A stretch of DNA of 64,000 nt. It comes from Escherichia phage UB. Positions 19,615-51,845 of the stretch are shown one piece after another. The DNA lies in the sequence record MH383160; one strand, 5' to 3'. Below the pieces are notes generated by a model. It was not told where the DNA came from and made no database searches. It saw only the letters and a program-made list of their open reading frames with translations. The translations under genes and the position numbers were made by a program. Each line of letters begins with the position of its first letter. Within the stretch, counting starts at the first letter, position 1.

Positions 19615-19621
19615 TTTTACC

Positions 19622-19816: not shown

Positions 19817-19817
19817 A

Positions 19818-21539: not shown

Positions 21540-21544
21540 TACCA

Positions 21545-33661: not shown

Positions 33662-33871
33662 TTAATCCTTCGTTACGCTAACGATTATCTGTGTATCCCC
33701 GTAGTCCTGCCATACTTCCACGCCATCGGTCGCCCTGGTTAGTCGTGCTGTCATCTGCTTAATGGTCTTAGGCTTTAGTGGAACCTGTTGCAGTACTGTA
33801 CGCATAGCATCATTGACGTTATCATGTACGCCTGCAATAGTACCTAGAACGCTGTATACTGTATAGAACAT
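33662..33871 (-). CDS. hypothetical protein
   Basis: ORF track 69 aa; AGGAG RBS 9 nt upstream. Confidence 0.55.
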   Translation of the reverse strand: MFYTVYSVLGTIAGVHDNVNDAMRTVLQQVPLKPKTIKQMTARLTRATDGVEVWQDYGDTQIIVSVTKD

Positions 33872-33896
33872 ATGTATGTACTCCTGATATAGTTAA

Positions 33897-33914
33897 GGCC
33901 GCTAGAGAGCGGCC
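33897..33914 (-). other. intercistronic GC hairpin
   Basis: perfect 7-bp stem GGCCGCT-AGAG-AGCGGCC between 33940..34341 and 33662..33871, no adjacent U-run. Confidence 0.4.
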
Positions 33915-33939
33915 TATGATGTTTGGTGATGTGTATTGC

Positions 33940-34341
33940 TTACAGCCCTAAGATAGTACGTGCTTCGTTACGTTCCGTACACAGCTGCATGATGTGAGCA
34001 AGTAAGTCCTTGCTAATGTATCCGGTGTTCATAGCTTCACGAATAGATACATCATAAGCACCGAACCCCGTGCGAACGATACGCACATCATTCAGGTTAG
34101 TATTATAGATACCGCCGAGATCAACGGCTTCGAATACTACATCAACAGAATATTCATTGTTGCCATCGTGGAAGTTTTCCAGTGCAATAGTATTGGATAC
34201 CGCCCAACGTTTGCAGTTTCCAATGATGCGGCACTGTTCCGGTTGGATAGTGCCATTACTTACAGCGTACTCCAGTGCATCTTTACCAAAAGTCCGAGCC
34301 AGTACTAAAACGTCAGCGAAGGAAGTGATTGAGAAGGTCAT
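33940..34341 (-). CDS. hypothetical protein
   Basis: ORF track ORF trimmed to ATG 34341 (MTFSITSF) with TAAGGAG RBS; the upstream 21 codons are translated promoter/5'UTR. Confidence 0.6.
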   Translation of the reverse strand: MTFSITSFADVLVLARTFGKDALEYAVSNGTIQPEQCRIIGNCKRWAVSNTIALENFHDGNNEYSVDVVFEAVDLGGIYNTNLNDVRIVRTGFGAYDVSIREAMNTGYISKDLLAHIMQLCTERNEARTILGL

Positions 34342-34395
34342 GATAAAACTCCTTAATTTAGGAGGGAGAACCATTTCCCCCTCTCTATGTAAAAC

Positions 34396-34423
34396 ATTAT
34401 ACATGAATCTAAGTACTATGCAA
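34396..34423 (-). promoter_or_regulatory. sigma70-like promoter
   Basis: minus strand TTGCAT-N16-TATAAT, then 5'UTR hairpin and RBS. Confidence 0.55.
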
Positions 34424-34430
34424 GTACTTT

Positions 34431-34763
34431 TTACATTTTGATACCTGGATTCAGGTAGCGGTGAGATCCATATTCTGGATCGGTTTCGGTCCAGTACTGT
34501 AAATCAATAGTGCCTTTAGCGTTAATCTTGTCTACCAGCTTATTCATCTTAGCGTATACTACATCGGCATCGATGCGTTTAAAGCCAGTAGCTTTAGTGA
34601 AGTAGTAGTGATTTGCTTCACTATCATTGAGGATATACCGAGCACCGTTTGCAGTCTGTGCGATAATGATTGAGTATTCTACTTCACGATCCAGTCCGTC
34701 GATGAATACAGATGAAACATTGGTACGGATGAAAGCTTTAACGATAGCGATTGAAGTACTCAT
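34431..34763 (-). CDS. hypothetical protein
   Basis: ORF track 110 aa; AGGAG RBS 7 nt upstream. Confidence 0.6.
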   Translation of the reverse strand: MSTSIAIVKAFIRTNVSSVFIDGLDREVEYSIIIAQTANGARYILNDSEANHYYFTKATGFKRIDADVVYAKMNKLVDKINAKGTIDLQYWTETDPEYGSHRYLNPGIKM

Positions 34764-34816
34764 TTTGAATCTCCTAACTTTGTGGGCCGTCGCACCATTG
34801 CCGCCCTACGAGATAC

Positions 34817-34845
34817 ATTATCGCAGTACTGATATACTTTGTCAA
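34817..34845 (-). promoter_or_regulatory. sigma70-like promoter
   Basis: minus strand TTGACA-N17-GATAAT. Confidence 0.5.
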
Positions 34846-34924
34846 TACTTTTTTATTAATAGTTTTAGTTCCACCAGCAGATAGTTACTCACCGTTATTA
34901 ACTATATATTTTGGATACACCTAT

Positions 34925-34938
34925 GCACCCTGTGGGCT
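34925..34938. repeat. conserved intergenic box GCACCC-N3-GGGCT
   Basis: gcaccctgtgggct; same box recurs at 37178, 40450, 42807, 44471, 50403 and reversed at 48367, 52116. Confidence 0.5.
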
Positions 34939-34968
34939 AGTTTTTGTCTATGCGTATATAATAGCAAA

Positions 34969-34997
34969 GGGACTGACCGGAGTCAATCCTTTTTTTA
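34969..34997. terminator. intrinsic terminator hairpin (plus-strand geometry, possibly bidirectional)
   Basis: GGGACTGAC-CGGA-GTCAATCC followed by T8 on plus strand; ends minus-strand gene 35008..35208. Confidence 0.5.
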
Positions 34998-35007
34998 TTC
35001 TTTTTTG

Positions 35008-35208
35008 TTAGATGATTCTCCAATCATCAACGATCATGGTAAGATACCGAACCAGTGATTCGAGTGATTCGTGTTCTCGATAGTCTGCCGCTCCACCAGC
35101 GGTACAAGTACAGCCGATTACGCCGTTTTGTAGTTCCTGGATCTTTACGTCGATCTGGTTGGCTTTAGCTTCTTTCAGTACTTCAACCAGGGCGATAGCG
35201 ATAGACAT
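35008..35208 (-). CDS. hypothetical protein
   Basis: ORF track 66 aa; GGAG RBS. Confidence 0.55.
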   Translation of the reverse strand: MSIAIALVEVLKEAKANQIDVKIQELQNGVIGCTCTAGGAADYREHESLESLVRYLTMIVDDWRII

Positions 35209-35263
35209 AATGTTTTACTCCAAACTATTGGCGGGAGAACTATTCCCCCGCTCTATGTAAAAC

Positions 35264-35291
35264 ATTATACATTACTGGTTAGTACTGTCAA
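35264..35291 (-). promoter_or_regulatory. sigma70-like promoter
   Basis: minus strand TTGACA-N16-TATAAT followed by hairpin GCGGGGGAATAGTTCTCCCGC. Confidence 0.55.
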
Positions 35292-35298
35292 ATAGTTT

Positions 35299-35556
35299 TT
35301 ATGAAATATCTTCGATGTAGTCGGCCCATTTCATTTTTTCAGTACTGTCAATGGCTACCGGATTATTTGGATCAAACCATTCACCATCCCCGCAATACAT
35401 ACCCACGGCAACGGTTTTATAGCCATCCTGGGCAGTACTCCACGACATAGCACGATAGATATGGCCTTTAACTGGTTGCAGTACTGGTAACGTTTTATGG
35501 TCTTCTACGTAGGCCATAGCTTGAGGATTTACCCGATATTGTGTGAATTGTTCCAT
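35299..35556 (-). CDS. hypothetical protein
   Basis: ORF track 85 aa; AGGGG RBS. Confidence 0.6.
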   Translation of the reverse strand: MEQFTQYRVNPQAMAYVEDHKTLPVLQPVKGHIYRAMSWSTAQDGYKTVAVGMYCGDGEWFDPNNPVAIDSTEKMKWADYIEDIS

Positions 35557-35584
35557 TATGTTTCCCCTTGTTGTTAGTAAAGTT

Positions 35585-35613
35585 ATTACATCAGTACTAT
35601 CAAGCTATGTCAA
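35585..35613 (-). promoter_or_regulatory. sigma70-like promoter
   Basis: minus strand TTGACA-N17-TGTAAT. Confidence 0.45.
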
Positions 35614-35632
35614 TAGTACTGAAATAAAACTT

Positions 35633-35857
35633 TTAGATTAGATTATTGATGCCGTTGATGGTAGACTCGCTTTCTTCTTTCTCCCATTGGCGGTAGTACT
35701 TCCATGCTTCATGATATGTGGCGATTAGTTCATCTTTTTGATCCTGAGTACATGCCAGTACTGAATCACTGTAAGCGGTGTTATAGATAGAATCAAATGA
35801 TTTCTTATCTGCCGCCAGGTTTACTACTGCCCGGATCAGGTCATCGTGATTAGCCAT
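35633..35857 (-). CDS. hypothetical protein
   Basis: ORF track ORF trimmed to ATG 35857 (MANHDDLIRAV) with AAGGAG RBS. Confidence 0.55.
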   Translation of the reverse strand: MANHDDLIRAVVNLAADKKSFDSIYNTAYSDSVLACTQDQKDELIATYHEAWKYYRQWEKEESESTINGINNLI

Positions 35858-35905
35858 CGTATTACTCCTTATTAGTGGGGGAGGATATCTCCCCCTATGC
35901 AAAAC

Positions 35906-35933
35906 ATTATACTTTGTTTTAGTTATTATGCAA
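35906..35933 (-). promoter_or_regulatory. sigma70-like promoter
   Basis: minus strand TTGCAT-N16-TATAAT; hairpin GGGGGAGATATCCTCCCCC in 5'UTR. Confidence 0.55.
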
Positions 35934-36189
35934 GTACTTTTTTCATATAAACATTAAATTCTACACCGCCGTAACCTTCTACGATGATATGTTTTGCGTT
36001 ATCACGTTTGCACATAGTGAAACCGTTGTTGATATGTTCTGCATTTTCCAGGGATACATCACCGATTGCAGCACATACGGCACTAATAACAGTATTCCGC
36101 AAAGTACTGGTATCATTAGCGGTCATAGTAGTTTGCAGTACTACGTTGTCGTATACGTGTGCATTGATAGTGATTTCGATAGTGTTCAT
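35926..36189 (-). CDS. hypothetical protein
   Basis: ORF track 87 aa; AGGAG RBS. Confidence 0.6.
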   Translation of the reverse strand: MNTIEITINAHVYDNVVLQTTMTANDTSTLRNTVISAVCAAIGDVSLENAEHINNGFTMCKRDNAKHIIVEGYGGVEFNVYMKKVLA

Positions 36190-36240
36190 GGTGTATCTCC
36201 TGGACTAGCGGGAGAACTATTCCCCCGCTCTATGTAAAAC

Positions 36241-36268
36241 ATTATACGTTAATCTAACTACAATGCAA
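36241..36268 (-). promoter_or_regulatory. sigma70-like promoter
   Basis: minus strand TTGCAT-N16-TATAAT. Confidence 0.55.
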
Positions 36269-36275
36269 GTACTTT

Positions 36276-36467
36276 TTAAATTTTATTTCCGATATAGTCC
36301 GGCCTGTTCTTTTCGGTCATACGCTTAAGCATTTTTTGCATATGGCTTATTGCTTGTAGTGTATCCTCTTCCAGGGATGAATCGAGATAATCAGGATCAT
36401 TCTTTACCTTGCAATGATTATGATAGCGTAGTACTGCCAGTACTTTTTTAACTTCTTCAACTGTCAT
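36276..36467 (-). CDS. hypothetical protein
   Basis: ORF track 63 aa; 4-nt overlap with upstream gene. Confidence 0.5.
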   Translation of the reverse strand: MTVEEVKKVLAVLRYHNHCKVKNDPDYLDSSLEEDTLQAISHMQKMLKRMTEKNRPDYIGNKI

Positions 36468-36736
36468 AATAAGTACTCCACTTCGTTAGCTTTCAGGTTA
36501 GTATCAATCATCAGTGGTTTTTTGTAGTCCACAAAACGATTAGTTTTCTCGATGGCGAATCCCATATAATCCAGCTTACTTACCGTGCATTCATTCTTAA
36601 AAACTTCTTTCGCTGCATTGATGGCTGATTCAATTGATAACCGACCATCTAAGTTAATGTTTCCAAATGATCCACCAGCAGAAGTAGGATTACCGTTCAT
36701 ATCTTTAATGATCATAGTAGCGGAGTAGCTAGACAT
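36464..36736 (-). CDS. hypothetical protein
   Basis: ORF track 90 aa. Confidence 0.6.
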   Translation of the reverse strand: MSSYSATMIIKDMNGNPTSAGGSFGNINLDGRLSIESAINAAKEVFKNECTVSKLDYMGFAIEKTNRFVDYKKPLMIDTNLKANEVEYLL

Positions 36737-36789
36737 AATTTTGTTTCCTTTTATTGGTGGGGAGAACTATTCTCCCCTTGATGTAAACT

Positions 36790-36817
36790 ATTATACAGTA
36801 CTGATATACTTTGTCAA
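36790..36817 (-). promoter_or_regulatory. sigma70-like promoter
   Basis: minus strand TTGACA-N16-TATAAT; hairpin GGGGAGAATAGTTCTCCCC in 5'UTR. Confidence 0.55.
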
Positions 36818-36820
36818 TAC

Positions 36821-43994: not shown

Positions 43995-44336
43995 TTATTC
44001 GAAATCTTCTGGACCGGACTGATAATCATCTTCACCGTATGCACTTTCTAACCGCTCACCAGTGTAATCATCAGTTAAGCTATCATCCTCATAGTTCACG
44101 TCTACGCCTGTGATGTAAAACTGGCTATCGTCTGGATCATTGAAATTAATTTTTTGGATGTTTACAATAACTGTATTGATGCCCAGGACACCGCCATCAG
44201 CCGTTACAAAGTACTGATAGTTTTCACAACCGCCTGAATTGAAACCGTAATTAATTTCGGCCCGACCATCATTTAAACGCAGTGCCTGGGCAATGATTTC
44301 ATTTTCAAAGTTAGATTGAGCAATTGAGATAGTCAT
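43995..44336 (-). CDS. hypothetical acidic protein
   Basis: ORF track 113 aa; AAGGAA RBS. Confidence 0.6.
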   Translation of the reverse strand: MTISIAQSNFENEIIAQALRLNDGRAEINYGFNSGGCENYQYFVTADGGVLGINTVIVNIQKINFNDPDDSQFYITGVDVNYEDDSLTDDYTGERLESAYGEDDYQSGPEDFE

Positions 44337-44387
44337 GATTCGTTTCCTTATTACCAGGGGAAACCGTTTCCCCTTGCGATGTAAAAC

Positions 44388-44415
44388 ATTATACGCTTAT
44401 TGAGATAGTTTGCAA
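44388..44415 (-). promoter_or_regulatory. sigma70-like promoter
   Basis: minus strand TTGCAA-N16-TATAAT. Confidence 0.5.
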
Positions 44416-44470
44416 GTACTTTTTAAAAATAGTTTTCAGTACTCAAACATTATACAATAGATACACTCCT

Positions 44471-44484
44471 GCACCCTGTGGGCT
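44471..44484. repeat. conserved intergenic box GCACCC-N3-GGGCT
   Basis: gcaccctgtgggct. Confidence 0.5.
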
Positions 44485-44520
44485 AGTGAGCTATCTCTCA
44501 ATGAATATATAATAGCAAAC

Positions 44521-44548
44521 TGGCTGACCGAAGTCAACCACTTTTTCA
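44521..44548. terminator. terminator-like hairpin
   Basis: TGGCTGAC-CGAA-GTCAACCA (one mismatch) followed by T-run; overlaps stop of 44546..44683. Confidence 0.4.
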
Positions 44549-44683
44549 TTTATTTTTAGCTTTTAGAATCGCCGCCTTTCGCGTCATGCCTTGCTTGATG
44601 TACTCATTTACTTTCGCTTTTTTAGCGTTTACCTTGTCTGCTTTCGTTTTAGGAGTACTGTAAATTATACCGTTAGGATTCAT
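44546..44683 (-). CDS. small basic hypothetical protein
   Basis: 45-aa Lys-rich ORF (MNPNGIIYSTPKTKADK...); below ORF-track cutoff. Confidence 0.4.
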   Translation of the reverse strand: MNPNGIIYSTPKTKADKVNAKKAKVNEYIKQGMTRKAAILKAKNK

Positions 44684-44773
44684 TTAAATCACCATAAAGA
44701 ATAGATAGGTTACTAACAATGCCGCGATCATTGCACCGACCAGGGCCGAACTGTAATAAGCTAATGATTTCAT
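44684..44773 (-). CDS. putative small hydrophobic (membrane) peptide
   Basis: 29-aa ORF MKSLAYYSSALVGAMIAALLVTYLFFMVI; ATGA overlap with upstream gene. Confidence 0.35.
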   Translation of the reverse strand: MKSLAYYSSALVGAMIAALLVTYLFFMVI

Positions 44774-44922
44774 TTTTTAGCCTGAAAATAATGTTTAATT
44801 TGAGCGGCGGTCAGTGCACAATTACGCAGGAAGTTTTCTGTATAACTGCGTCGAGTACTGAAAGAAAATTGACCTTTACCGTTCCCGATAGTAACATCAA
44901 ACCGAGCATTATATTGTTTCAT
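44770..44922 (-). CDS. hypothetical protein
   Basis: ORF track ORF trimmed to ATG 44922 (MKQYNARF) with AGGAGA RBS. Confidence 0.5.
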   Translation of the reverse strand: MKQYNARFDVTIGNGKGQFSFSTRRSYTENFLRNCALTAAQIKHYFQAKK

Positions 44923-44972
44923 TTTGTTTCTCCTGTTCTTGGGGAGAATCATTTCTCCCCTTCATGTAAACT

Positions 44973-45000
44973 ATTATACAGTACTAAAAACTAATTGCAA
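44973..45000 (-). promoter_or_regulatory. sigma70-like promoter
   Basis: minus strand TTGCAA-N16-TATAAT; hairpin GGGGAGAAATGATTCTCCCC. Confidence 0.5.
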
Positions 45001-45003
45001 GTA

Positions 45004-45150
45004 TTATTTTTTAGATTTACGTAAACTTTCTACCATCTCAGGAGTAAGCCCCAGCGGGTAGGAAACCACTTCATCCACAAAACGCAAAGGGAATACCCCA
45101 TCTAAAGTTGAACGTGCTTTCTTATTAGTACTCTTTTTTGATGCTTTCAT
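45004..45150 (-). CDS. small hypothetical protein
   Basis: 48-aa ORF (MKASKKSTNKKAR...) with AAGGAA RBS. Confidence 0.4.
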   Translation of the reverse strand: MKASKKSTNKKARSTLDGVFPLRFVDEVVSYPLGLTPEMVESLRKSKK

Positions 45151-45201
45151 TTCATATTCCTTAATTAGTGGGGAGAACTATTTCTCCACTTCATGTAAAC
45201 T

Positions 45202-45229
45202 ATTATACAGTACTAAAAACTAATTGCAA
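45202..45229 (-). promoter_or_regulatory. sigma70-like promoter
   Basis: minus strand TTGCAA-N16-TATAAT. Confidence 0.5.
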
Positions 45230-45429
45230 GTATTATTTTCTAAAAAATGTTTGTATGCTGAATCAACCACTCTTTCGATAACATACGCTAACGGCACGTA
45301 TCCAACTACATGACTACAATAAAAAGGACTACGATTAGAATCATCGTATGCAAATACTTTTTCAGGATCTGCATCAATCACATACATATTAACCTTTAAG
45401 ATGTCGATCTTATCCTGTACAGTAAGCAT
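45220..45429 (-). CDS. hypothetical protein
   Basis: ORF track 69 aa. Confidence 0.55.
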   Translation of the reverse strand: MLTVQDKIDILKVNMYVIDADPEKVFAYDDSNRSPFYCSHVVGYVPLAYVIERVVDSAYKHFLENNTCN

Positions 45430-45434
45430 ATTAA

Positions 45435-45707
45435 TTAACCTTTTAAGTACTGGCTTAAGTAGTCTTTTTGATCTTCGGTGATTGCAGTCATCTTCCCTAG
45501 TACTGGGTTGATGATATAATCCCCTGTAACGTCCTGTGACGCATTCTCAGGGTGTTTAACGGCTGGGGTAGCCATAGCCATTGCCTGGACTTGTTCGACG
45601 CTGTAACGCTCATAAAGGCGGCATTCTTCCGGTGTTAACATAGCATCAGTACGCTTCATCGGTTTAATGATGCTTTCGATCTCATTCAGTACTTGATTAA
45701 CGTTCAT
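45435..45707 (-). CDS. hypothetical protein
   Basis: ORF track 90 aa. Confidence 0.6.
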   Translation of the reverse strand: MNVNQVLNEIESIIKPMKRTDAMLTPEECRLYERYSVEQVQAMAMATPAVKHPENASQDVTGDYIINPVLGKMTAITEDQKDYLSQYLKG

Positions 45708-45758
45708 GGTATAATCCCCAATATAAGCGGCCTAAAACGACCGCTAACGATGTTTTGA

Positions 45759-46028
45759 TTAATAGGTGTAAGGTTGACGCTCAAACAATGATTGCACGTT
45801 GTACGCCCCGCTAATGGGCTTTGCTGGCAAATCGATTTTATATTGTTCACGCTTAAAGATAATAAAACGGCAATTGTTTTTAACATCAAAATTGATTGAA
45901 CGTTCCAGGAGTTTTCCATCGTGCACAAATACAAGATAACCGCTTGGTACTTGTTTTGTAGTACTGGTTGCAACCATAGACCGACGAACATGAGTACCTG
46001 CATCGATTAAAGTACTGATATTTTTCAT
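45759..46028 (-). CDS. hypothetical protein
   Basis: ORF track 89 aa; AAGGAA RBS and promoter module upstream; preferred over overlapping frame 45704..46003. Confidence 0.55.
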   Translation of the reverse strand: MKNISTLIDAGTHVRRSMVATSTTKQVPSGYLVFVHDGKLLERSINFDVKNNCRFIIFKREQYKIDLPAKPISGAYNVQSLFERQPYTY

Positions 46029-46059
46029 TTTAGTTTCCTTAGTTGTCTTGATAAAATCT

Positions 46060-46088
46060 ATTATGCCAGTACTATCAAACTATGTCAA
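46060..46088 (-). promoter_or_regulatory. sigma70-like promoter
   Basis: minus strand TTGACA-N17-CATAAT. Confidence 0.5.
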
Positions 46089-46107
46089 TAGTACTGTGAT
46101 AATATTT

Positions 46108-46251
46108 TTACTTACTTTTTGCTTTCTTAATTGCTTCCACCTGGTCGGCCCATTCTTTACCCCATACTTGTAAATTATAATGGTACTGGCAAAGAGCAAC
46201 GCCCCGCTTTAAACCAGTAATAGATTTTTTACCACATTGACAAGTTTTCAT
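46108..46251 (-). CDS. small hypothetical protein with CxC...CxxH
   Basis: 47-aa ORF MKTCQCGKK...CQYH; AAGGAA RBS. Confidence 0.4.
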   Translation of the reverse strand: MKTCQCGKKSITGLKRGVALCQYHYNLQVWGKEWADQVEAIKKAKSK

Positions 46252-46300
46252 ATTAGTTTCCTTGTAGTGGGGAGAATCATTTCTCCCCTTGATGTAATGT

Positions 46301-46328
46301 ATTATACTTTATTCGATTTACTTTGCAA
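46301..46328 (-). promoter_or_regulatory. sigma70-like promoter
   Basis: minus strand TTGCAA-N16-TATAAT. Confidence 0.5.
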
Positions 46329-46336
46329 GTACTTTT

Positions 46337-46564
46337 TTAATTTAATTCATCCAGGCAAAGGATACGCTCAACGCCCAAATCAGTTAAACTAATGGTCGGC
46401 ACTTGATAGGTTTCAATGTATGCTACAGTTGCCCACTGACCGAACTCATTAACGGCCCAGGTATTCATTGCATTTTGCAATTCCGCACCTGCCTTGTTAG
46501 TAATGACTGCAACTACTTGTTCGTTGCCAGTAGTACCAGATACGCGAGTAATGATAATAGCCAT
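46337..46564 (-). CDS. hypothetical protein
   Basis: ORF trimmed to ATG 46564 (MAIIITRVSG) with AAGGAA RBS; upstream codons are translated 5'UTR. Confidence 0.55.
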   Translation of the reverse strand: MAIIITRVSGTTGNEQVVAVITNKAGAELQNAMNTWAVNEFGQWATVAYIETYQVPTISLTDLGVERILCLDELN

Positions 46565-46619
46565 TGTTTTGATTCCTTTGATTTGGAAGGAGAACCGTTT
46601 TCCCCTCTCGATGTAAAAC

Positions 46620-46647
46620 ATTATACGCTAATCTATTAATCATGCAA
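46620..46647 (-). promoter_or_regulatory. sigma70-like promoter
   Basis: minus strand TTGCAT-N16-TATAAT. Confidence 0.55.
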
Positions 46648-46799
46648 GTACTTTTTATTACTTTTTGCAAAATACTTTAAACGCTCTCAATCGCATTCTA
46701 ACGACCTTAACGCCACCAGCTAGGGCGATGTATCAGATAATCAGTTTAATGCGTTAGAATCGATTATAGGCGGTGCTAGTGGACTGGAATACTATAGAC

Positions 46800-46827
46800 A
46801 CAAAAAAGCCCACTGTTTAAGGTGGGC
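46800..46827 (-). terminator. intrinsic terminator
   Basis: minus strand hairpin AGCCCAC-CTTAAACA-GTGGGCT followed by U6; after stop of 46850..47332. Confidence 0.6.
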
Positions 46828-46849
46828 TATTGATTCAGTACTTTAATTG

Positions 46850-47332
46850 TTATGCTTCAACTTTGCGATGAGCTTCGATCCATTCCTCGCGAGTCATACC
46901 GCTTTCTTTGATAGCGTCCAGTACTACCGCAATGCAGTTACCGCGTACAGGAATCAAATGTTCTTCACCGTTATCAAGTACTACAGTAACACGTTCTTGA
47001 ATCCATTTTTTAGGTTTAGATTCTGGCTTATCTTCACCATACTTAACCGCCAGGGCTTTATGTGCCATTTCTACAACTACTTCCAGATCCAATCCAGACA
47101 CTGCCGCCTGGATACTGTCAATTGTTGCTTGCAGTTCGGCTTCACGGGCTTTTTTCTGTTCTTCCAGTTCTGCTACCTTTTTGGCTTGTAATTCTTTCGC
47201 TTCACTGTACGCAATGTTAAAATTGTTGCGTACTGCTTTCATGGTATCGTTATCCAGGTCAGCCAGCAATTCAGCAGCAATAACAGTATCGTTTGAAATC
47301 AGTGCTTTCAGGAATGATTTTACATTAGCCAT
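46850..47332 (-). CDS. hypothetical protein (Lys/Glu-rich, likely coiled coil)
   Basis: ORF trimmed to ATG 47332 (MANVKSFL) with GAGGAT RBS. Confidence 0.6.
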   Translation of the reverse strand: MANVKSFLKALISNDTVIAAELLADLDNDTMKAVRNNFNIAYSEAKELQAKKVAELEEQKKAREAELQATIDSIQAAVSGLDLEVVVEMAHKALAVKYGEDKPESKPKKWIQERVTVVLDNGEEHLIPVRGNCIAVVLDAIKESGMTREEWIEAHRKVEA

Positions 47333-47455
47333 TTTATAAATCCTCAATTAAAGTTTAGTTTACGTTTATTAGTGTATCAAAGTTTTTTTGACGTGTCCAG
47401 TTTTTCGTTCGACTTACTGGCGGTCTACTTAGTGCTCCCCGTCTTGATGTAATAC

Positions 47456-47483
47456 ATTCTACGCCTTTTTGCGGTATTGTCAA
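47456..47483 (-). promoter_or_regulatory. sigma70-like promoter
   Basis: minus strand TTGACA-N16-TAGAAT; ~110-nt leader. Confidence 0.45.
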
Positions 47484-47534
47484 CTACTTTTTTAAAACTA
47501 TTTTCAAAGTATCTCAGTACTACAATACTACAAA

Positions 47535-47564
47535 AATAAAAAAGCCCACTGTTTAAGGTGGGCT
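47535..47564 (-). terminator. intrinsic terminator
   Basis: second copy of AGCCCAC...GTGGGCT hairpin followed by U-rich run; after stop of 47582..47881. Confidence 0.6.
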
Positions 47565-47581
47565 AGTGATTCAGTACTATA

Positions 47582-47881
47582 TTATAAACAGTTAATTACT
47601 CCGGTGTGCGTTACTTTCTCAGTATCCATAACCGTGACCGATCCACGCTTAGTACTTGCATCATAATAAATTGTTGTGCTACCGTTTTCGTCTTCTTCAT
47701 GGAACGGGCCGTTTTTAAATGCTTCTGGTTGGATCTCTAAATCCTTTAAAACAATCTCGCCCGTACTTTCATTGGTCATCGCAACAGTGCACTGAATGAA
47801 TTTTTCACTACTCACATCTAACGACGCATTAACAGCGAAAGAGGAAACAGATAAAGCCAGGGCGATGATTGCAATTTTCAT
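47582..47881 (-). CDS. putative secreted protein with N-terminal signal peptide
   Basis: ORF track 99 aa; MKIAIIALALSVSSFAVNA-SLD signal-peptide-like N-terminus; AAGGAT RBS. Confidence 0.6.
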   Translation of the reverse strand: MKIAIIALALSVSSFAVNASLDVSSEKFIQCTVAMTNESTGEIVLKDLEIQPEAFKNGPFHEEDENGSTTIYYDASTKRGSVTVMDTEKVTHTGVINCL

Positions 47882-47932
47882 TTGATTATCCTTAGTTACT
47901 AGGGGGAACCTCTCCCCCGTGCTATGTAAAAT

Positions 47933-47960
47933 ATTATACAGTACTAAAAACTAATTGCAA
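47933..47960 (-). promoter_or_regulatory. sigma70-like promoter
   Basis: minus strand TTGCAA-N16-TATAAT. Confidence 0.55.
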
Positions 47961-47965
47961 GTACT

Positions 47966-48202
47966 TTATGATTTTTTATAAAACATTTCGGCAGTGATAT
48001 TTTTACCCGTTGGTTGTACTTTATCCAGAATTTTTTGATGCCCAGGCCGTCCAAATGAATATGATCCGTAAACCGTAAACCAGTAGTTACCCTCAGTGTT
48101 TACATGTACAGCACAATAGGGAACGCCCCGCGATTCATCACTAGTAAAGTGTGCTACCGTTCCCGTTACATTCGAAGTCGTTGATTTGATTTGTTCAAGC
48201 AT
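47966..48202 (-). CDS. hypothetical protein
   Basis: ORF track 78 aa; AAGGAA RBS. Confidence 0.55.
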   Translation of the reverse strand: MLEQIKSTTSNVTGTVAHFTSDESRGVPYCAVHVNTEGNYWFTVYGSYSFGRPGHQKILDKVQPTGKNITAEMFYKKS

Positions 48203-48249
48203 TTTCTTATTCCTTAGTTACCAGGGGAACCGCTCCCCCTATGCAAAAC

Positions 48250-48277
48250 ATTATACGCGTTTAAAAACTAATAGCAA
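48250..48277 (-). promoter_or_regulatory. sigma70-like promoter
   Basis: minus strand TTGCTA-N16-TATAAT. Confidence 0.5.
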
Positions 48278-48310
48278 GTATTTTAATAAAAAGTATTTGA
48301 AAAATAATTG

Positions 48311-48339
48311 TTGACAACTGCATCCAGTACTGGCATAAT
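48311..48339 (+). promoter_or_regulatory. sigma70-like promoter on plus strand (divergent)
   Basis: plus strand TTGACA-N17-CATAAT; no plus-strand ORF downstream. Confidence 0.4.
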
Positions 48340-48345
48340 ACTTAT

Positions 48346-48453
48346 ATAAAGACGATACAGTCACTAACCCACAGGGTGCCGAGATCCGTCTATTAAATGA
48401 TTCAGTACTGAAAAAGTAACGGGGAGTTATTATCTCCCCGCGTTGTTATTTGG
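48346..48453 (+). ncRNA. candidate small non-coding RNA
   Basis: ~105 nt between plus-strand promoter and hairpin GGGGAG-TTATTA-CTCCCC (48421..48439) with U-rich tail; contains ACCCACAGGGTGC box; no ORF. Confidence 0.3.
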
Positions 48454-48667
48454 TAAGGTATAAACAGAAGTCACCTTTATTTGCTACGCCGCCAGTGTAA
48501 CGCGATGAATAGTTAGAAATATCTTGTACTTCTGCTATTACCAGTGTATCATCATTCATTTCGTCGCAGAAGCAAACGGCTGGATCTTTAACGCCGATAT
48601 TGTCGGCATGTTCCCGCATAGATTTAACCAGTGCTTCCAGTTGAGAAAGAGTAGTGATATTAGCCAT
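48446..48667 (-). CDS. hypothetical protein
   Basis: ORF trimmed to ATG 48667 (MANITTLSQ) with GAGGAA RBS. Confidence 0.55.
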   Translation of the reverse strand: MANITTLSQLEALVKSMREHADNIGVKDPAVCFCDEMNDDTLVIAEVQDISNYSSRYTGGVANKGDFCLYLTK

Positions 48668-48717
48668 TGTATTTTCCTCATTACCAGGGAGAACCATTTC
48701 TCCCCTCTATGTAAAAC

Positions 48718-48745
48718 ATTATACAGTACTAAAAACTAATTGCAA
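48718..48745 (-). promoter_or_regulatory. sigma70-like promoter
   Basis: minus strand TTGCAA-N16-TATAAT. Confidence 0.55.
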
Positions 48746-48752
48746 GTACTTT

Positions 48753-48941
48753 TTAATTAAATTCCATAAAATCATTCTCAACGTGCACAACAATCTGATT
48801 ATTTTTAAAGTCCGCAGAAAACTCAATACAATCATATACTGCTTTTTCTGTTACCATACTATGAGTACCAATCGGATTAATAGGGGATTGAATTGTTTCA
48901 ATCTCGTTACCTTGTTCATTAACAATTAAAATATTAAACAT
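48753..48941 (-). CDS. hypothetical protein
   Basis: ORF track 62 aa; AGGAG RBS. Confidence 0.55.
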   Translation of the reverse strand: MFNILIVNEQGNEIETIQSPINPIGTHSMVTEKAVYDCIEFSADFKNNQIVVHVENDFMEFN

Positions 48942-48978
48942 AACTTTTACTCCTGATAGTGTTTACCTGATATAAAGT

Positions 48979-49006
48979 ATTATACGCCTTTATTGCTTAG
49001 TGTCCA
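48979..49006 (-). promoter_or_regulatory. sigma70-like promoter
   Basis: minus strand TGGACA-N16-TATAAT. Confidence 0.45.
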
Positions 49007-49203
49007 GTACTTTTTAAAACATAATCAAAGACACTTCTCACATCATTGATCATCGCCTGGCGGTTAGCAGGTAAAGCATCAGGATCACCACTATCCCAAG
49101 CCTGTATGAAGCCTCCAAGCTCTGAATAAACTTTATTACGCAATCCGATTAACTGTAATTCTTTTTCTTCAAGCTCTTTGATACGTTCAATTAAATCACT
49201 CAT
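48997..49203 (-). CDS. hypothetical protein
   Basis: ORF trimmed to ATG 49203 (MSDLIERIKELEEKE) with AAGGAT RBS. Confidence 0.55.
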   Translation of the reverse strand: MSDLIERIKELEEKELQLIGLRNKVYSELGGFIQAWDSGDPDALPANRQAMINDVRSVFDYVLKSTGH

Positions 49204-49220
49204 TAGATAATCCTTAGTAC

Positions 49221-49508
49221 TTAACTGTAAGATCCGCAACGGTCGCAGTAGTGCCCGTCTTCCTCGTCATCGTCAACGAATTGCCCGACGAAATGATCTA
49301 CTTTCGCTTTCAGGTTATTATAATCGTTTTCTACTTCCTTTAATCGTTCCTGGTAGTATTCCAGTGCCTCAAGATACGCCGCCTCAGCAGTTTTTGCACG
49401 CATAGCTAAATTCATGCCACGCGATTCATCATAAAGCCAATAACCATCAGTGCACTGGCTAATAGATAATGACTTGCTTAATACTGTATAGCTAATTACT
49501 TTGCTCAT
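49221..49508 (-). CDS. hypothetical protein
   Basis: ORF trimmed to ATG 49508 (MSKVISYTVL) with GAGGAA RBS; C-terminal HYCDRCGSYS. Confidence 0.55.
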   Translation of the reverse strand: MSKVISYTVLSKSLSISQCTDGYWLYDESRGMNLAMRAKTAEAAYLEALEYYQERLKEVENDYNNLKAKVDHFVGQFVDDDEEDGHYCDRCGSYS

Positions 49509-49526
49509 TAGATATTCCTCAGTAAA

Positions 49527-49546
49527 GGCGGGAACCATTCCCCGCC
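49527..49546 (-). other. intercistronic GC hairpin
   Basis: GGCGGG-N8-CCCGCC between 49564..50175 and 49221..49508; no promoter in this gap. Confidence 0.4.
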
Positions 49547-49563
49547 ATTATCTCAGTACTAAA

Positions 49564-50175
49564 TTAATATGCGATTGATTCTACTACGCCATCAATAACA
49601 TTGAATTGATACTCGTTACCCTCGATCAGTGCCGTGATGTTCTCAGTAGTGAATTGATCCTCATATGCATTCTCTAAATCACGGTACAACTTGCGGGATA
49701 ATTCACGAATAGTTTCAGTGAGTAGTTCCTCAAGCTCATTAACTAACGTTTCTTGTTTTGCGGTTAAATCAGTGTAAGCCGATTCAATGTACCCGCTTAC
49801 AGTATTCTCATGCGAGTAGTGGGAGTGAGAACGCTTTACACTCATCGGCAAATCATCTTCATTCAGCAGGTGACGGATTGAGCGATACTTAGTTAATGCT
49901 CTTACCTTGCGTAAAAACTTCACTGCGTCAACGTGGTCAGTACTGATTGATGCACCGTCACCTTGCGACCAAAAACCACTGAATCGTAAATCTGCGTCAT
50001 TAATGCCATATTCCGGTAGTACTGTTTCTTTATAGTATTCAATTTCACTTTCAGAAAAATAATCATCGTTTAAGTTTTTTTCACGTTCCCGAACCAGTTC
50101 GATAGCTGACGTTTGTTGTTCTGCGTTCAATTCAGAAAAAGCCATAACATAAGTAGTAGTAGTGATAGTTTTCAT
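49564..50175 (-). CDS. hypothetical acidic protein
   Basis: ORF track 203 aa; GAGGGT RBS. Confidence 0.6.
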   Translation of the reverse strand: MKTITTTTYVMAFSELNAEQQTSAIELVREREKNLNDDYFSESEIEYYKETVLPEYGINDADLRFSGFWSQGDGASISTDHVDAVKFLRKVRALTKYRSIRHLLNEDDLPMSVKRSHSHYSHENTVSGYIESAYTDLTAKQETLVNELEELLTETIRELSRKLYRDLENAYEDQFTTENITALIEGNEYQFNVIDGVVESIAY

Positions 50176-50207
50176 TTTGTAACCCTCATTCAGTAGTTGA
50201 TGTAAGT

Positions 50208-50235
50208 ATTATACGCTTTTAAAAACAATTGTCAA
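50208..50235 (-). promoter_or_regulatory. sigma70-like promoter
   Basis: minus strand TTGACA-N16-TATAAT. Confidence 0.55.
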
Positions 50236-50317
50236 ACTATTTTATCAGGGGAGTTTTTCGTGTGCCTTACTCCTGGGCTACTTAACGGGGAGTTACTTAT
50301 TTCGTCCCCCGTCCTGA
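50236..50317 (-). repeat. ~80-nt structured non-coding unit between tandem promoters (copy 2)
   Basis: near-identical to 40277..40358, with the same flanking promoter arrangement. Confidence 0.4.
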
Positions 50318-50325
50318 TGTAAAAC

Positions 50326-50353
50326 ATTATACGCCTTTAAACATAGTTTGCAA
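50326..50353 (-). promoter_or_regulatory. sigma70-like promoter
   Basis: minus strand TTGCAA-N16-TATAAT. Confidence 0.5.
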
Positions 50354-50402
50354 GTACTTTTTGAAAAATAGTTTTTAATCACTTTTATATAGATACACTC
50401 CC

Positions 50403-50416
50403 GCACCCTATGGGCT
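50403..50416. repeat. conserved intergenic box GCACCC-N3-GGGCT
   Basis: gcaccctatgggct; here followed by a different hairpin CCGGCTT-N17-AAGCCGG (50429..50459). Confidence 0.45.
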
Positions 50417-50476
50417 ATCGCCTTGTGTCCGGCTTGTAAGTATTATCTCACTAAGCCGGATAATGGTCAAGTACTT

Positions 50477-50743
50477 TTATTCAAGTACTGCTATCTTTTT
50501 AGTACTGTACACAGTAACACGGTTGCCCTTGCGGTCGTGCTTTATTTCTACCACTCGACGCGATACACTATCAGGACTTTTTAACGCCGATAACCAGTAC
50601 TGTAAGGATCTGGCTGTACTTTGCTTTACTACCGCCCAACGTTTACCACGTTCCGATTGCACGCCCATATCTTTAAACGTTGCCCCGTCCTGGCGAGCGG
50701 CGATCCGAGCTTGTTCACGCGTTGCAAAGTATATAATATTCAT
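50477..50743 (-). CDS. hypothetical protein, FATRE...HDRKGNRVTVYS paralog
   Basis: ORF trimmed to ATG 50743 (MNIIYFATREQARIAARQDGATFKDMG); paralog of 38767..39162. Confidence 0.55.
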   Translation of the reverse strand: MNIIYFATREQARIAARQDGATFKDMGVQSERGKRWAVVKQSTARSLQYWLSALKSPDSVSRRVVEIKHDRKGNRVTVYSTKKIAVLE

Positions 50744-50825
50744 GCTGTTATCCCATCGTTGATGTATGAATAAAATCCTATTATAAAGTACTATCACCGT
50801 GCAATAGTACTTTAAATAAATTCTA

Positions 50826-51065
50826 TTACATTCCAACCATTGCAGCACGGATCGCCGTAGTGCTATATTTGAATCCGTCCGGCGTTTTATCTTGTCCAGT
50901 CTGTTCTAAAAATAGCATCATATGACGGGCCGCATCATTGCGATTAGTGTTAGCGGCAATAAAGTCCTGGGCCAACCGGTATAATGATTCATCGTTATTA
51001 ATCCAAAGGCTTACATTCCATTGAGTTTTGTTAGCGTGACCTAAGAACATTTTTGATTTAGCCAT
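50826..51065 (-). CDS. hypothetical protein
   Basis: ORF track 79 aa; GAGGAT RBS. Confidence 0.55.
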   Translation of the reverse strand: MAKSKMFLGHANKTQWNVSLWINNDESLYRLAQDFIAANTNRNDAARHMMLFLEQTGQDKTPDGFKYSTTAIRAAMVGM

Positions 51066-51120
51066 TTTTAAATCCTCGTTTGATTTGAGGCGGGAATAGT
51101 TCCCGCTCTCGATGTAAAGT

Positions 51121-51148
51121 ATTATACGCTATTTGTTAGTACTGTCAA
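51121..51148 (-). promoter_or_regulatory. sigma70-like promoter
   Basis: minus strand TTGACA-N16-TATAAT. Confidence 0.55.
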
Positions 51149-51163
51149 ACTACTTTTTAAAAC

Positions 51164-51526
51164 TTATTCGTAAATCTTGCCACTGTCAGCCCATACCAGG
51201 AAACGAGGCATATTATCCCATGCATCTTGTTTTAAATTTAAACCGTGTAATACTTCTGTACTTTCCATTCCTGGTACTGGTTTACTATACACCGCGAACA
51301 ATTCACCCATATACTGATAAGCCATCGTTAAATCACTTGCGATCATCTTATGGATCATCGCATCAAGCATCACGGTAGCGGCGTATTGTTCACGCTTAAG
51401 CGGTAACATTGCAATAAGTTCCCGATAAGCTGAAATGTGAATTTTTACCGTTTCTGCCGGAAGATCTTTCATCTCGTCGCGGAAGTTAACCAGGTTAGCA
51501 ATAATTTTATTGATTTGAGTAGCCAT
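51164..51526 (-). CDS. hypothetical protein
   Basis: ORF trimmed to ATG 51526 (MATQINKIIANL); first gene of the early-like block. Confidence 0.6.
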   Translation of the reverse strand: MATQINKIIANLVNFRDEMKDLPAETVKIHISAYRELIAMLPLKREQYAATVMLDAMIHKMIASDLTMAYQYMGELFAVYSKPVPGMESTEVLHGLNLKQDAWDNMPRFLVWADSGKIYE

Positions 51527-51581
51527 CGTTTTAATCTCTCTTAAAGTGTAGCGGGAAGTGTTCCCGCTCTCGATGTAAAAC

Positions 51582-51609
51582 ATTCTACACCTTTCCCAAT
51601 ACTTTGCAA
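51582..51609 (-). promoter_or_regulatory. sigma70-like promoter
   Basis: minus strand TTGCAA-N16-TAGAAT. Confidence 0.5.
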
Positions 51610-51845
51610 GTACTTTCTACAAATACTTTTAAAATAGTTTTCTTTCTATATAGGAGTACTATCATTCAGTACTGCTACACTAGAATCAATCAACCAAATC
51701 ACTACTATACCCCATAAAACGGCCTCAGACGCATTCTAACGCATTAATACACCTAAGCTATACATTTGCACCGCCACCAGCTAACCAGGGCTTTACGATG
51801 CGTTTAAACGCGTTAAATTATTTTCAATTATTTTGTTTTTTGCTA

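Follow-up and report, generated by a model that had tools for sequence, protein, structure and literature searches.

Positions 33,897–51,609 of the 64,000-nt window analysed here, a stretch of Escherichia phage UB (record MH383160; all coordinates are window positions), belong to an interval (33,510–53,219) of about 51 genes with a median length of 78 aa, many of which stand behind a near-identical unit of a sigma-70 promoter, a short GC-rich hairpin in the 5′ untranslated region (5′UTR) and a ribosome-binding site (RBS). Jumbo phages of the group to which UB belongs are in development for therapy, while over 80% of their genes, including practically every gene of the terminal repeats, lack a known function or regulation. 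Early genes in such repeats are already known. The direct terminal repeat (DTR) of PA5oct holds 105 genes, many of them highly transcribed early from TTGAC/TATAATA promoters (PMC7318152), and in CBB both the early region and the repeat carry RpoD-like promoters accompanied by UP-like elements (PMC5259590). Here, we describe the unit in front of these genes, which we refer to as the module, and argue that the DTR of this RaK2-like jumbo coliphage (genus Asteriusvirus) is probably an array of autonomous early-gene cassettes, built from recombining modules with a hairpin that acts at the RNA level.

A promoter–hairpin module repeated on one strand

The 15-mer TATAATGTTTTACAT, searched for with up to three mismatches allowed, has 26 genuine copies, which span 34,401–52,832 and occupy only the minus strand. 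Aligning the modules into a profile had been proposed with the initial annotation of this stretch, and a profile hidden Markov model (HMM) built from the 26 copies recovered 25 matches with E < 1e-8, again all on the minus strand, at 34,358–52,865; weaker partial matches fall in the same interval, and the remaining 44 kb of the window hold nothing comparable by the same profile. An independent consensus scanner found 13 perfect 12/12 sites (TTGACA-N16/17-TATAAT) in 33,510–53,219, all on the minus strand, and none in an adjacent control of 19.7 kb. Under a uniform promoter definition (TTGACA, TTGCAA or TTGCAT with at most one mismatch, TATAAT with at most one mismatch and a spacer of 16–18 nt), the repeat contains 42 minus-strand promoter-like sites, 40 of them within 33,897–51,609. 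Twenty-one are followed by a short GC-rich hairpin of the GGGGAGAA type, three by a long leader and 12 by no hairpin, and six belong to ORF-less units that we call type B (ORF, open reading frame). All but one of the short-hairpin promoters (20/21) have a 16-nt spacer.

The module is real and far beyond chance, and the earlier counts were overstated. The initial annotation had given nearly every gene a private promoter, hairpin and RBS and had counted at least 37 such modules. That figure holds for promoters, which about two-thirds of the genes possess, and not for the full promoter–hairpin–RBS unit, of which there are 21, in front of under half of the genes; about one-third of the genes lack a private promoter and either overlap the gene before them or directly adjoin it. 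The modules do lie where they had been placed, between 33,897 and 51,609 and on the minus strand only, and they extend further, to about 52,865. What the initial annotation missed is the decisive context, the terminal repeat, and the RNA-level nature of the hairpin.

Read 5′ to 3′, the consensus module opens with AAAAAGTAC, an A-rich, UP-like tract that abuts the −35 box (TTGCAA or TTGACA). A 16-nt spacer, often ending in AGTACTG, leads to TATAAT, followed by (G/A)NTTTAC, AT, 3–5 nt and a stem of about 8 bp, with a G-rich and a C-rich arm around a loop of 3–5 nt. Between the stem and the Shine–Dalgarno (SD) sequence with its ATG lie 17–24 nt rich in A and in stop codons. In the full cassette, TTGCAT also serves as −35 box, and the discriminator behind TATAAT is 7 nt long and A/T-rich. 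A conserved CAT is found 7–8 nt past the −10 box and, because this is the usual start position, we place the presumed +1 at its A. The stem, which begins 12–13 nt after the −10 box, would then start at about +6, the hairpin would span about +6 to +27, and the 5′UTR is predicted to be 41–51 nt long.

The promoters fall into two classes. Those of class I have a 16-nt spacer and TATAAT, followed by the hairpin or a long leader, and those of class II have a 17-nt spacer and an extended −10 box (TGgCATAAT or TGcTATTAT), followed by no hairpin or by a type-B unit. Extended −10 boxes occur only in the 17-nt-spacer class; one had been considered for the main module and was rejected, as the TG directly abuts TATAAT and the scanner reports none.

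The block matches the direct terminal repeat of relatives

A megablast search with 33,897–51,609 against phage genomes matched 172 records. In the best of them, the 366-kb Asteriusvirus genome of Escherichia phage vB_EcoM_CRJP21, 93% of the query is covered at 95.0% identity; fEgEco12, E9.1, G17, slurp01, phAPEC6 and others follow at patchy coverage. With CRJP21 as the best match, we take the window to be part of a RaK2-like Asteriusvirus jumbo coliphage. RaK2-like phages are only distant relatives within the T4 superfamily by portal phylogeny (PMC5259590).

Two relatives have defined genome ends. fEgEco12 has direct terminal repeats of 20,993 bp, found by PhageTerm and confirmed by restriction mapping (PMC13070987), and the record of vB_Ec-M-J is annotated with repeats of 21,525 bp. 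Position 1 of both genomes aligns to window position 53,219 on the minus strand, and their inner repeat boundaries (20,993 and 21,525, respectively) align to about 33,510; the two repeats are collinear with window 53,219–33,510 over their full lengths. Mapped in this way from two relatives, the block coincides with the predicted DTR of the genome. The window runs through both repeat boundaries, as a collapsed assembly would, and the gene layout changes at about 33,510, from gaps of ~80–100 nt with promoters to 4-nt ATGA overlaps without promoters.

The modules keep to the repeat in other genomes as well. All 33–34 module matches in fEgEco12 and vB_Ec-M-J fall within their repeats. The complete relative EC22.5-2, assembled at 351,992 bp, was scanned genome-wide: 31 of its 35 module matches lie on one strand in the repeat-equivalent 29.75–51.0 kb (6% of the genome), as do every match with E < 1e-8 and all nine type-B cores. 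Since 74 generic near-consensus sigma-70 sites of EC22.5-2 lie outside the repeat, it is the composite module, and not the generic sigma-70 site, that is repeat-specific. BLAST with one module finds 10–11 places in collapsed assemblies and 19–23 in records that contain both repeat copies.

The hairpin is conserved as RNA

Among the distinct leaders of six Asteriusviruses, 90 of 113 contain a stem of 7 bp or longer in which no more than one pair is non-Watson–Crick, compared with a mean of 11.8 and a maximum of 22 in shuffled leaders. Of the 30 non-Watson–Crick pairs in these stems, 19 are G·T or T·G and one is A·C. Tolerance of G·T but not of A·C argues for selection on the sense-strand RNA, and is unexpected for a palindrome in duplex DNA or for the antisense strand.

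Pairing is kept in 48 distinct arm combinations. On a plain MAFFT alignment of 54 leaders, in which many stems were out of register, RNAalifold called only 4 pairs. Pairs were instead counted explicitly on an alignment anchored at the loop, a procedure that is biased towards pairing and was hence accompanied by slide and shuffle controls. Across 41 distinct hairpins aligned in this way, the inner eight pairs are paired in ~85–100% of the rows. Two-sided compensatory change is seen in 65 cells, compared with 20.8 ± 3.7 in shuffles (none of 500 reached 65), and sliding the partner arm by 1–3 columns lowers pairing from 83% to 47–65%.

A comparison across genera is independent of the loop-anchored alignment. 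The Klebsiella phage Muenster (Alcyoneusvirus) also has an annotated terminal repeat, which contains about 20 modules. Their promoters are laid out alike and their hairpins keep the same offset, and the stems are unrelated in sequence to those described here (GGGGATAC/GTATCCC, GGGAATGA/TCATTCCC and GGAGATTCCA/TGGAATCTCC). As the repeats of Muenster and of the window are homologous and roughly collinear, with about 20 shared proteins at 27–65% identity, the structure of the hairpin has persisted through the turnover of its sequence. Both the tolerance of G·U but not of A·C and the position kept with unrelated stems in a Klebsiella phage genus mark the hairpin as an RNA-level element, and at the level of sequence comparison they show selection on the sense-strand RNA. 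In folding predictions, the hairpin is part of the minimum-free-energy structure of 19 of the 21 predicted 5′UTRs, with leader stabilities of −12 to −20 kcal/mol, and is preceded by a single-stranded 5′ tail of median 5 nt (range 1–6).

Genes behave as cassettes

The 51 proteins include a single paralogous pair, and still the 49-nt promoter cores in front of unrelated genes are up to 92–98% identical. The repeated unit is therefore the module and not the gene, and paralogy of the downstream genes was rejected as the cause of module repetition.

Compared with five relatives, the block differs mostly by single genes of ~245–540 bp. A gene for a GNAT acetyltransferase (41,871–42,227, Pfam) is absent from G17, which at this site carries a chimeric promoter whose −35 box comes from upstream of the missing gene and whose −10 box comes from downstream of it. 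In fEgEco12, an additional gene stands at the module at 46.6 kb, with junctions directly after the −10 box and at the RBS, and in vB_Ec-M-J an additional gene stands between two near-identical modules. Junctions with respect to the relatives were seen in the spacer, just after the −10 box or at the RBS. In total, 24 of 29 distinct junction ends fall in intergenic sequence or within 10 nt of a gene edge, which together make up 34% of the sequence (binomial P ~ 9e-8). The comparisons show the cassette pattern, from which we infer recombination as its mechanism.

Similar cassettes are found in an unrelated family. The rV5-like phage A73 (Vequintavirinae, 142 kb) has about 13 shared genes at 65–89% amino acid identity in thoroughly shuffled order, and six HMM-detectable modules, including the long leader, in the same 24-kb region as the shared genes. 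It would seem that coliphage families draw their early cassettes from a common pool. The A73 homologues lie at 11800–23300 of that genome and correspond to window 34000–51100, and several carry the same promoter–hairpin module.

Few products of the repeat are recognisable: a protein-kinase match at 37263–37847, which is weak and below the Pfam cut-off, the GNAT acetyltransferase at 41871–42227 and a DksA/TraR-type zinc-finger protein at 42291–42548. By their sequence assignments, these would fit host-takeover functions. Other large repeat proteins tested had no Pfam match.

Proposed function and alternative explanations

We consider it likely that the DTR serves as an array of autonomous early-gene cassettes. 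Unmodified host sigma-70 RNA polymerase would fire the promoters as the DNA end enters the cell, resulting in many short, independently expressed host-takeover messages. The hairpin would protect each message from 5′-end-dependent decay and, in addition, form a barrier for read-through transcripts. The ~90-nt module, being near-identical before unrelated genes, would offer homology for recombination, by which phages of the genus, and also of different families, could acquire, lose and reorder single genes as cassettes. Strong early expression, already proposed in the initial annotation, is plausible given the quality of the promoters and, by analogy, the RNA-seq data of the distant relative PA5oct (PMC7318152).

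For the hairpin itself we favour a role mainly as a message stabiliser, and possibly also as a barrier on read-through transcripts, because it forms in the predicted transcripts and base-paired 5′ ends slow RNase E (PMC3997798). The 5′ stem-loops that stabilise the ompA and papA mRNAs (PMC3997798) resemble it in being stable hairpins near the 5′ end, upstream of an unstructured RBS. In the leaders described here, a tail of ~5 nt is predicted in front of the hairpin. The leader of T7 gene 10 has another 5′-terminal stabilising stem-loop, and unlike the predicted tail here, the hairpins of ompA, papA and T7 gene 10 begin ~0–4 nt from the 5′ end. Bouvet and Belasco reportedly found in 1992 that full protection is compatible with a tail of ~2–4 nt.

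Several points weigh against the array of stabilised, recombining cassettes as we propose it. The predicted tail of ~5 nt exceeds the limit just mentioned, which makes the stabiliser role uncertain. Half of the promoters have no hairpin, so it is not obligatory, and insulation of the RBS was rejected as its main role, given an SD unpaired probability of 0.70 compared with 0.64 with shuffled leaders. The covariation counts overstate the number of independent events, as the copies share descent and the alignment is anchored on the best hairpin. Selection for intact genes contributes to the excess of junction ends at gene boundaries, and purifying selection on its own would place breakpoints there too. 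The varying positions of the junctions within the module argue for general homologous recombination and not for a dedicated site. Finally, start sites, timing and strength are predictions from sequence.

The alternative that survives best is that the hairpin acts mainly on polycistronic read-through transcripts, blocking 3′-to-5′ exonucleases or directing processing into stable cistron segments. Most cassettes are without terminators, so read-through is expected, the GC stems between the genes are stable, and a 5-nt tail is not ideal for 5′-end protection. However, the distance of the hairpin is fixed from the promoter and not from the upstream stop codon, and promoter-less intergenic junctions in the block have no such hairpin, and we regard this explanation as unlikely.

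Another possibility is that the hairpins are terminators or attenuators like those of the promoter-early stem-loop elements (PeSLs) of T4-type phages, stopping upstream read-through and leaving each gene served by its own promoter only. The hairpins are GC-rich and intergenic, most gene pairs have no other terminator between them, and the G-run/C-run stem-loops beside early promoters in PeSLs cut reporter expression like a known terminator (PMC2839356). Here, however, the hairpin lies downstream of its own start site and would attenuate its own message too. A terminator scan flags none of the 21 module hairpins, none is followed by a T-run, and the sequence behind them is A-rich and stop-rich. 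Genuine T-run terminators are found elsewhere, in type-B hairpins and at only a few other sites of the block (38726–38744, 48419–48441, 47543–47564 and 46807–46828), and we judge a terminator role for the module hairpins to be quite improbable. Two of these four terminators are bidirectional, and one sequence (AGCCCACCTTAAACAGTGGGCT) is present twice. Their small number suggests that the cassettes are combined in a few larger transcription units.

A DNA-level explanation would make the inverted repeat an operator, at which a dimeric phage or host regulator shuts off early transcription. Its position at +6 to +27 is classical for a repressor, early genes need to be switched off later in infection, and AGTACT palindromes flank the −35 and −10 boxes in many copies. 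Against an operator, the arms are not conserved but covary (GGGGAGAA, GCGGGAA, GAGGGGAA and GGGAAGTA here; GGGGATAC, GGGAATGA and GGAGATTCCA in Muenster). The strand-asymmetric mismatches (G·T, not A·C) are not predicted by recognition of duplex DNA either, and this leaves the operator very unlikely. That module similarity is a relic of recent tandem duplication with no function beyond the promoter is already disfavoured and scarcely credible: sub-families of near-identical modules are present, but the downstream genes are not paralogs and pairing survives sequence change, also across genera with unrelated stems.

Comparison with known systems

PeSLs are composite elements of an early promoter and a stem-loop in the hyperplastic regions of T4-type phages, where they bound indels and can recombine into mini-circles; the stem-loop, which works as a terminator, can be placed in five ways with respect to the promoter (PMC2839356, PMC4122927). 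The initial annotation had likened the modules to these cassettes, and much of the likeness stands. As in RB49/phi1, T4/PST and KVP40/nt-1 (PMC2839356, PMC4122927), there is a dense array of consensus sigma-70 early promoters (here 13 perfect sites and 42 close to consensus), each behind an AT-rich tract (here AAAAAGTAC, abutting the −35 box) and followed by a G-run/C-run stem-loop, an SD sequence and ATG before small ORFans in a hyperplastic region. In both systems, the elements bound indels, and crossovers map either inside the promoter or to the interval that separates the −10 box from the ATG; here these are single-gene indels between close relatives, with junctions inside modules, and the ORFans are flanked by the elements.

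The likeness does not extend to the placing of the hairpin or to the phage. The PeSL stem-loop, often polyG...polyC, is variable in position, mostly lies between or overlaps the promoter hexamers, can also lie upstream or shortly ahead of the start site, and is a reported terminator, whereas the hairpin of the main module has one fixed position inside the transcript, its stem 12–13 nt past the −10 box, with no U-tract and with covariation at the RNA level. Circularly permuted T4-type genomes lack a direct terminal repeat, the only place where the array described here is found, and the array belongs to a RaK2-like Asteriusvirus jumbo phage and not to a T4-type, Tevenvirinae-like myovirus. Closer to a PeSL subclass are the type-B units, in which a hairpin overlaps the −35 box. 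Hence, the modules work like PeSLs as promoters and recombination linkers, yet are not PeSL members, and the function of the stem-loop probably differs.

The RaK2-like jumbo phages PA5oct, CBB and fEgEco12 are of the same lineage and have the array's location in common, the 21-kb DTR of fEgEco12 being collinear with the block (PMC13070987). Neither the papers on these three phages nor the deposited annotations of relatives that we examined describe a per-gene module, a 5′UTR hairpin, covariation or cassette junctions, and no description of the module was found in open-access literature on Asteriusvirus promoters, RaK2 early promoters or start-site mapping. The per-gene module, its 5′UTR hairpin and the cassette junctions are apparently undescribed.

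The pre-early (first-step-transfer) genes of phage T5 lie in its left terminal repeat and have exceptionally strong promoters for host RNA polymerase. They are likewise small host-takeover genes in a terminal repeat that are expressed first; they have no sequence relationship to those described here, and T5 DNA is transferred in two steps. We know of no standardised promoter–hairpin–RBS unit in T5. By analogy only, morons and integron gene cassettes are also single genes that move as self-contained units; the difference is that no integrase or attC-type site is found here and the shared element is the expression module itself. A search of 28–56 kb with the covariance models of Rfam 15 gave no match at E ≤ 1 (40,200–40,560 gave sub-threshold noise only), and no tRNAs were found.

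If the proposed reading is true, the array marks which ~50 proteins act first against the host, and its modules could serve for expression in E. coli as compact, portable and very strong units that bring an RNA element with them. They would also give a simple rule by which wrongly called start codons could be corrected in dozens of genome records. Junctions inside modules, and cassettes shared with an unrelated family, extend the PeSL idea, in which regulatory elements drive gene shuffling, beyond T4-type phages.

Type-B units, long leaders and AGTACT

Eight type-B units are found in the window, six on the minus and two on the plus strand, and nine each in EC22.5-2 and Muenster. Each has its own class-II promoter (17-nt spacer, extended −10 box), with the −35 box often buried in a terminator-like hairpin, and no ORF; a small hairpin with a purine-rich loop is followed by an invariant CCCAYNGGGTGC box and then by TGTATCTAT. 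By eye, the stem of the small hairpin appears to covary, which alignment folding did not confirm: RNAalifold gave only an invariant CCC/GGG mini-hairpin and no two-sided covariation. Long-range pairing (AGAUA:UAUCU or AGACG:CGUCU) was dropped because it has different partners in different copies, and we make no structural claim for it. The units have no Rfam match. Genome-wide, the family is confined to the terminal repeat (EC22.5-2), it is conserved in two genera, and its hairpin is annotated as a terminator in G17 and UE-S1. The type-B unit may be a small RNA or a cis-acting leader.

The long leader (CAGGACGGGG...CCTCCCCTGAT), ~95 nt and ORF-less, lies between a class-I promoter and the next promoter. 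It follows three class-I promoters of the window (minus strand, 50246–50331, 40287–40370 and 47333–47461) and is predicted to form a three-way junction, with z about −2.3 to −2.6 in two copies. The leader is 84–90% identical in the unrelated phage A73 (11871–11990).

With 262 copies in the window, the palindrome AGTACT exceeds its expectation 12-fold, compared with at most 2.7-fold for the next 6-mer palindrome. In EC22.5-2 it occurs 919 times, compared with 119 expected, and is densest in the repeat. AGTACT takes two fixed positions at promoters: of 28 examined, 13 have it directly next to the −35 box and 10 next to the −10 box. Its copies, which frequently extend to CAGTACTG, reach double the density in the terminal repeat, yet not one lies in 17,297–25,013 (7.7 kb) or 28,896–33,641 (4.7 kb). 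A search for open-access literature on AGTACT over-representation found none. Both the type-B units and the AGTACT signature are testable leads to the regulation of these phages.

Taken jointly, these observations allow a wider reading, which we offer tentatively and hold to be rather doubtful. RaK2-like terminal repeats could be a dedicated cassette platform, in which the module is both expression signal and recombination linker and anti-host ORFans move between Asteriusvirus, Alcyoneusvirus and the rV5-like Vequintavirinae. The ORF-less type-B RNAs (~9 per repeat, with an invariant CCCAYNGGGUGC box) might act as small RNAs or as polymerase-modifying elements in cis, and AGTACT might be the binding site of a phage factor that controls the array.

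Features of the repeat and its borders

Promoter units and the repeat-equivalent region are listed in Table 1.

Table 1. Promoter units and related features of the terminal-repeat region. Hairpin modules were located by profile HMM and a promoter-centred scan, and plain promoters by consensus scanner and a promoter-centred scan, unless stated otherwise.
Feature	Position	Strand	Details
Region equivalent to the DTR	33510–53219		Alignment to fEgEco12 and vB_Ec-M-J ends; fEgEco12 DTR experimental (PMC13070987)
Hairpin module, TTGCAA-16-TAGAAT	51527–51619	−	Hairpin 51550–51568, ATG 51526
Hairpin module, TTGACA-16-TATAAT	51066–51158	−	Hairpin 51088–51108, ATG 51065
Hairpin module, TTGCAA-16-TATAAT	48668–48755	−	Hairpin 48686–48705, ATG 48667
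Hairpin module, TTGCTA-16-TATAAT	48203–48287	−	Hairpin 48220–48242, ATG 48202
Hairpin module, TTGCAA-16-TATAAT	47882–47970	−	Hairpin 47902–47918, ATG 47881
Hairpin module, TTGCAT-16-TATAAT	46565–46657	−	Hairpin 46585–46609, ATG 46564; extra gene cassette here in relatives (nucleotide comparison and promoter scan)
Hairpin module, TTGCAA-16-TATAAT	46252–46338	−	Hairpin 46269–46288, ATG 46251
Hairpin module, TTGCAA-16-TATAAT	45151–45239	−	Hairpin 45170–45189 (one mismatch), ATG 45150
Hairpin module, TTGCAA-16-TATAAT	44923–45010	−	Hairpin 44941–44960, ATG 44922
Hairpin module, TTGCAA-16-TATAAT	44337–44425	−	Hairpin 44353–44377, ATG 44336
Hairpin module, TTGACA-16-TATAAT	43902–43990	−	Hairpin 43922–43940, ATG 43901
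Hairpin module, TTGCAT-17-TATAGT	41792–41877	−	Hairpin 41810–41828, ATG 41791; downstream junction of the GNAT cassette (nucleotide comparison and promoter scan)
Hairpin module, TTGACA-16-TATAAT	41169–41255	−	Hairpin 41186–41205, ATG 41168
Hairpin module, TTGACA-16-TATAAT	39853–39946	−	Hairpin 39874–39896, ATG 39852
Hairpin module, TTGACA-16-TATAAT	39582–39676	−	Hairpin 39603–39626, ATG 39581
Hairpin module, TTGCAT-16-TATAAT	37043–37132	−	Hairpin 37062–37081, ATG 37042
Hairpin module, TTGACA-16-TATAAT	36737–36827	−	Hairpin 36759–36777, ATG 36736
Hairpin module, TTGCAT-16-TATAAT	36190–36278	−	Hairpin 36207–36229, ATG 36189
Hairpin module, TTGCAT-16-TATAAT	35858–35943	−	Hairpin 35877–35895, ATG 35857
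Hairpin module, TTGACA-16-TATAAT	35209–35301	−	Hairpin 35231–35251, ATG 35208
Hairpin module, TTGCAT-16-TATAAT	34342–34433	−	Hairpin 34362–34383, ATG 34341
Class-I promoter TTGCAA-16-TATAAT with ~95-nt structured ORF-less leader (CAGGACGGGGG...CTCCCCTGAT)	50246–50363	−	Promoter scan and folding
Class-I promoter TTGCAT-16-TATAAT with ~95-nt structured ORF-less leader	40287–40402	−	Also conserved in rV5-like phage A73
Promoter TTGACA-16-TAGAAT with divergent ~117-nt long leader	47333–47493	−	ATG 47332
Plain promoter TTGACA-16-TATAAT, no hairpin	50176–50245	−	ATG 50175
Plain promoter TTGACA-17-CATAAT, extended −10, no hairpin	46029–46098	−	
Plain promoter TTGACA-17-CATAAT, extended −10	43606–43679	−	ATG 43605
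Plain promoter TTGACA-16-TATAAT	43327–43408	−	ATG 43326
Plain promoter TTGGAA-17-TATTAT, upstream of DksA/TraR zinc-finger gene	42549–42632	−	ATG 42548; Pfam and promoter scan
Plain promoter TTGACA-16-TATAAT, upstream of GNAT acetyltransferase gene	42228–42294	−	Upstream junction of the cassette absent from G17
Plain promoter TTGACA-16-TATAAT	40216–40286	−	ATG 40215
Plain promoter TTGACA-17-TATAAT	39163–39245	−	ATG 39162
Plain promoter TTGACA-17-TATTAT	38398–38464	−	ATG 38397
Plain promoter TTGACA-17-GATAAT	34764–34855	−	ATG 34763
Two promoter-like sites, TTGAAA-16-TATGAT and TTGACA-16-TATAAT (second with AT-rich hairpin)	52790–52964	−	Non-coding zone by genome end; no ORF after
Type-B ORF-less unit, TTGACC-17-GATAAT	50364–50482	−	Conserved box CCCATAGGGTGC at 50403–50414
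Type-B ORF-less unit, hairpin overlapping −35 TTGACT, TATTAT	44426–44549	−	Box 44471–44482
Type-B ORF-less unit, TTGACA-17-CATAAT	42760–42887	−	Box 42807–42818
Type-B ORF-less unit, terminator-like hairpin 40491–40518 containing −35	40403–40523	−	Box 40450–40461
Type-B ORF-less unit, terminator-like hairpin 37224–37251 containing −35	37133–37256	−	Box 37178–37189
Type-B ORF-less unit, hairpin 34970–34989 containing −35	34856–34998	−	Box 34925–34936
Type-B unit on the opposite strand, promoter 48311–48339	48301–48445	+	Box from 48368; ends at bidirectional terminator 48420–48440
Type-B-like unit near genome end	52050–52150	+	Box from 52118

At the outer border, the stretch 53199–53219, which matches the physical left end of the genome in the relatives, opens with the inverted repeat GGCAGAGGAAGTCTGCC, and the ~1.6 kb of 51620–53219 have no convincing ORFs, with promoters on both strands and type-B-like boxes. 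On the minus strand at 30103–33412, just inside the repeat boundary, at least 14 paralogous genes of 65–90 aa form a tandem array; they have a common LGTNYQ(E/D) motif and 4-nt ATGA overlaps, no promoters, and fall in an AGTACT-free zone.

The module also affects gene calling. As the initial annotation had recognised, recurring N-termini among the predicted ORFs are artefacts: the ATG in TATAATG and an ATG in the hairpin loop, the latter behind the SD-like G-rich arm, extend ORFs spuriously. The hairpin-loop ATG gives in-frame false starts 30–57 nt upstream of the real, RBS-linked ATG (real/false pairs 51526/51583, 48667/48697, 44922/44952 and 34341/34374). At least one deposited annotation appears to use the extended start: in fEgEco12, g01 (1689–2108) is annotated at 139 aa, compared with 120 aa here.

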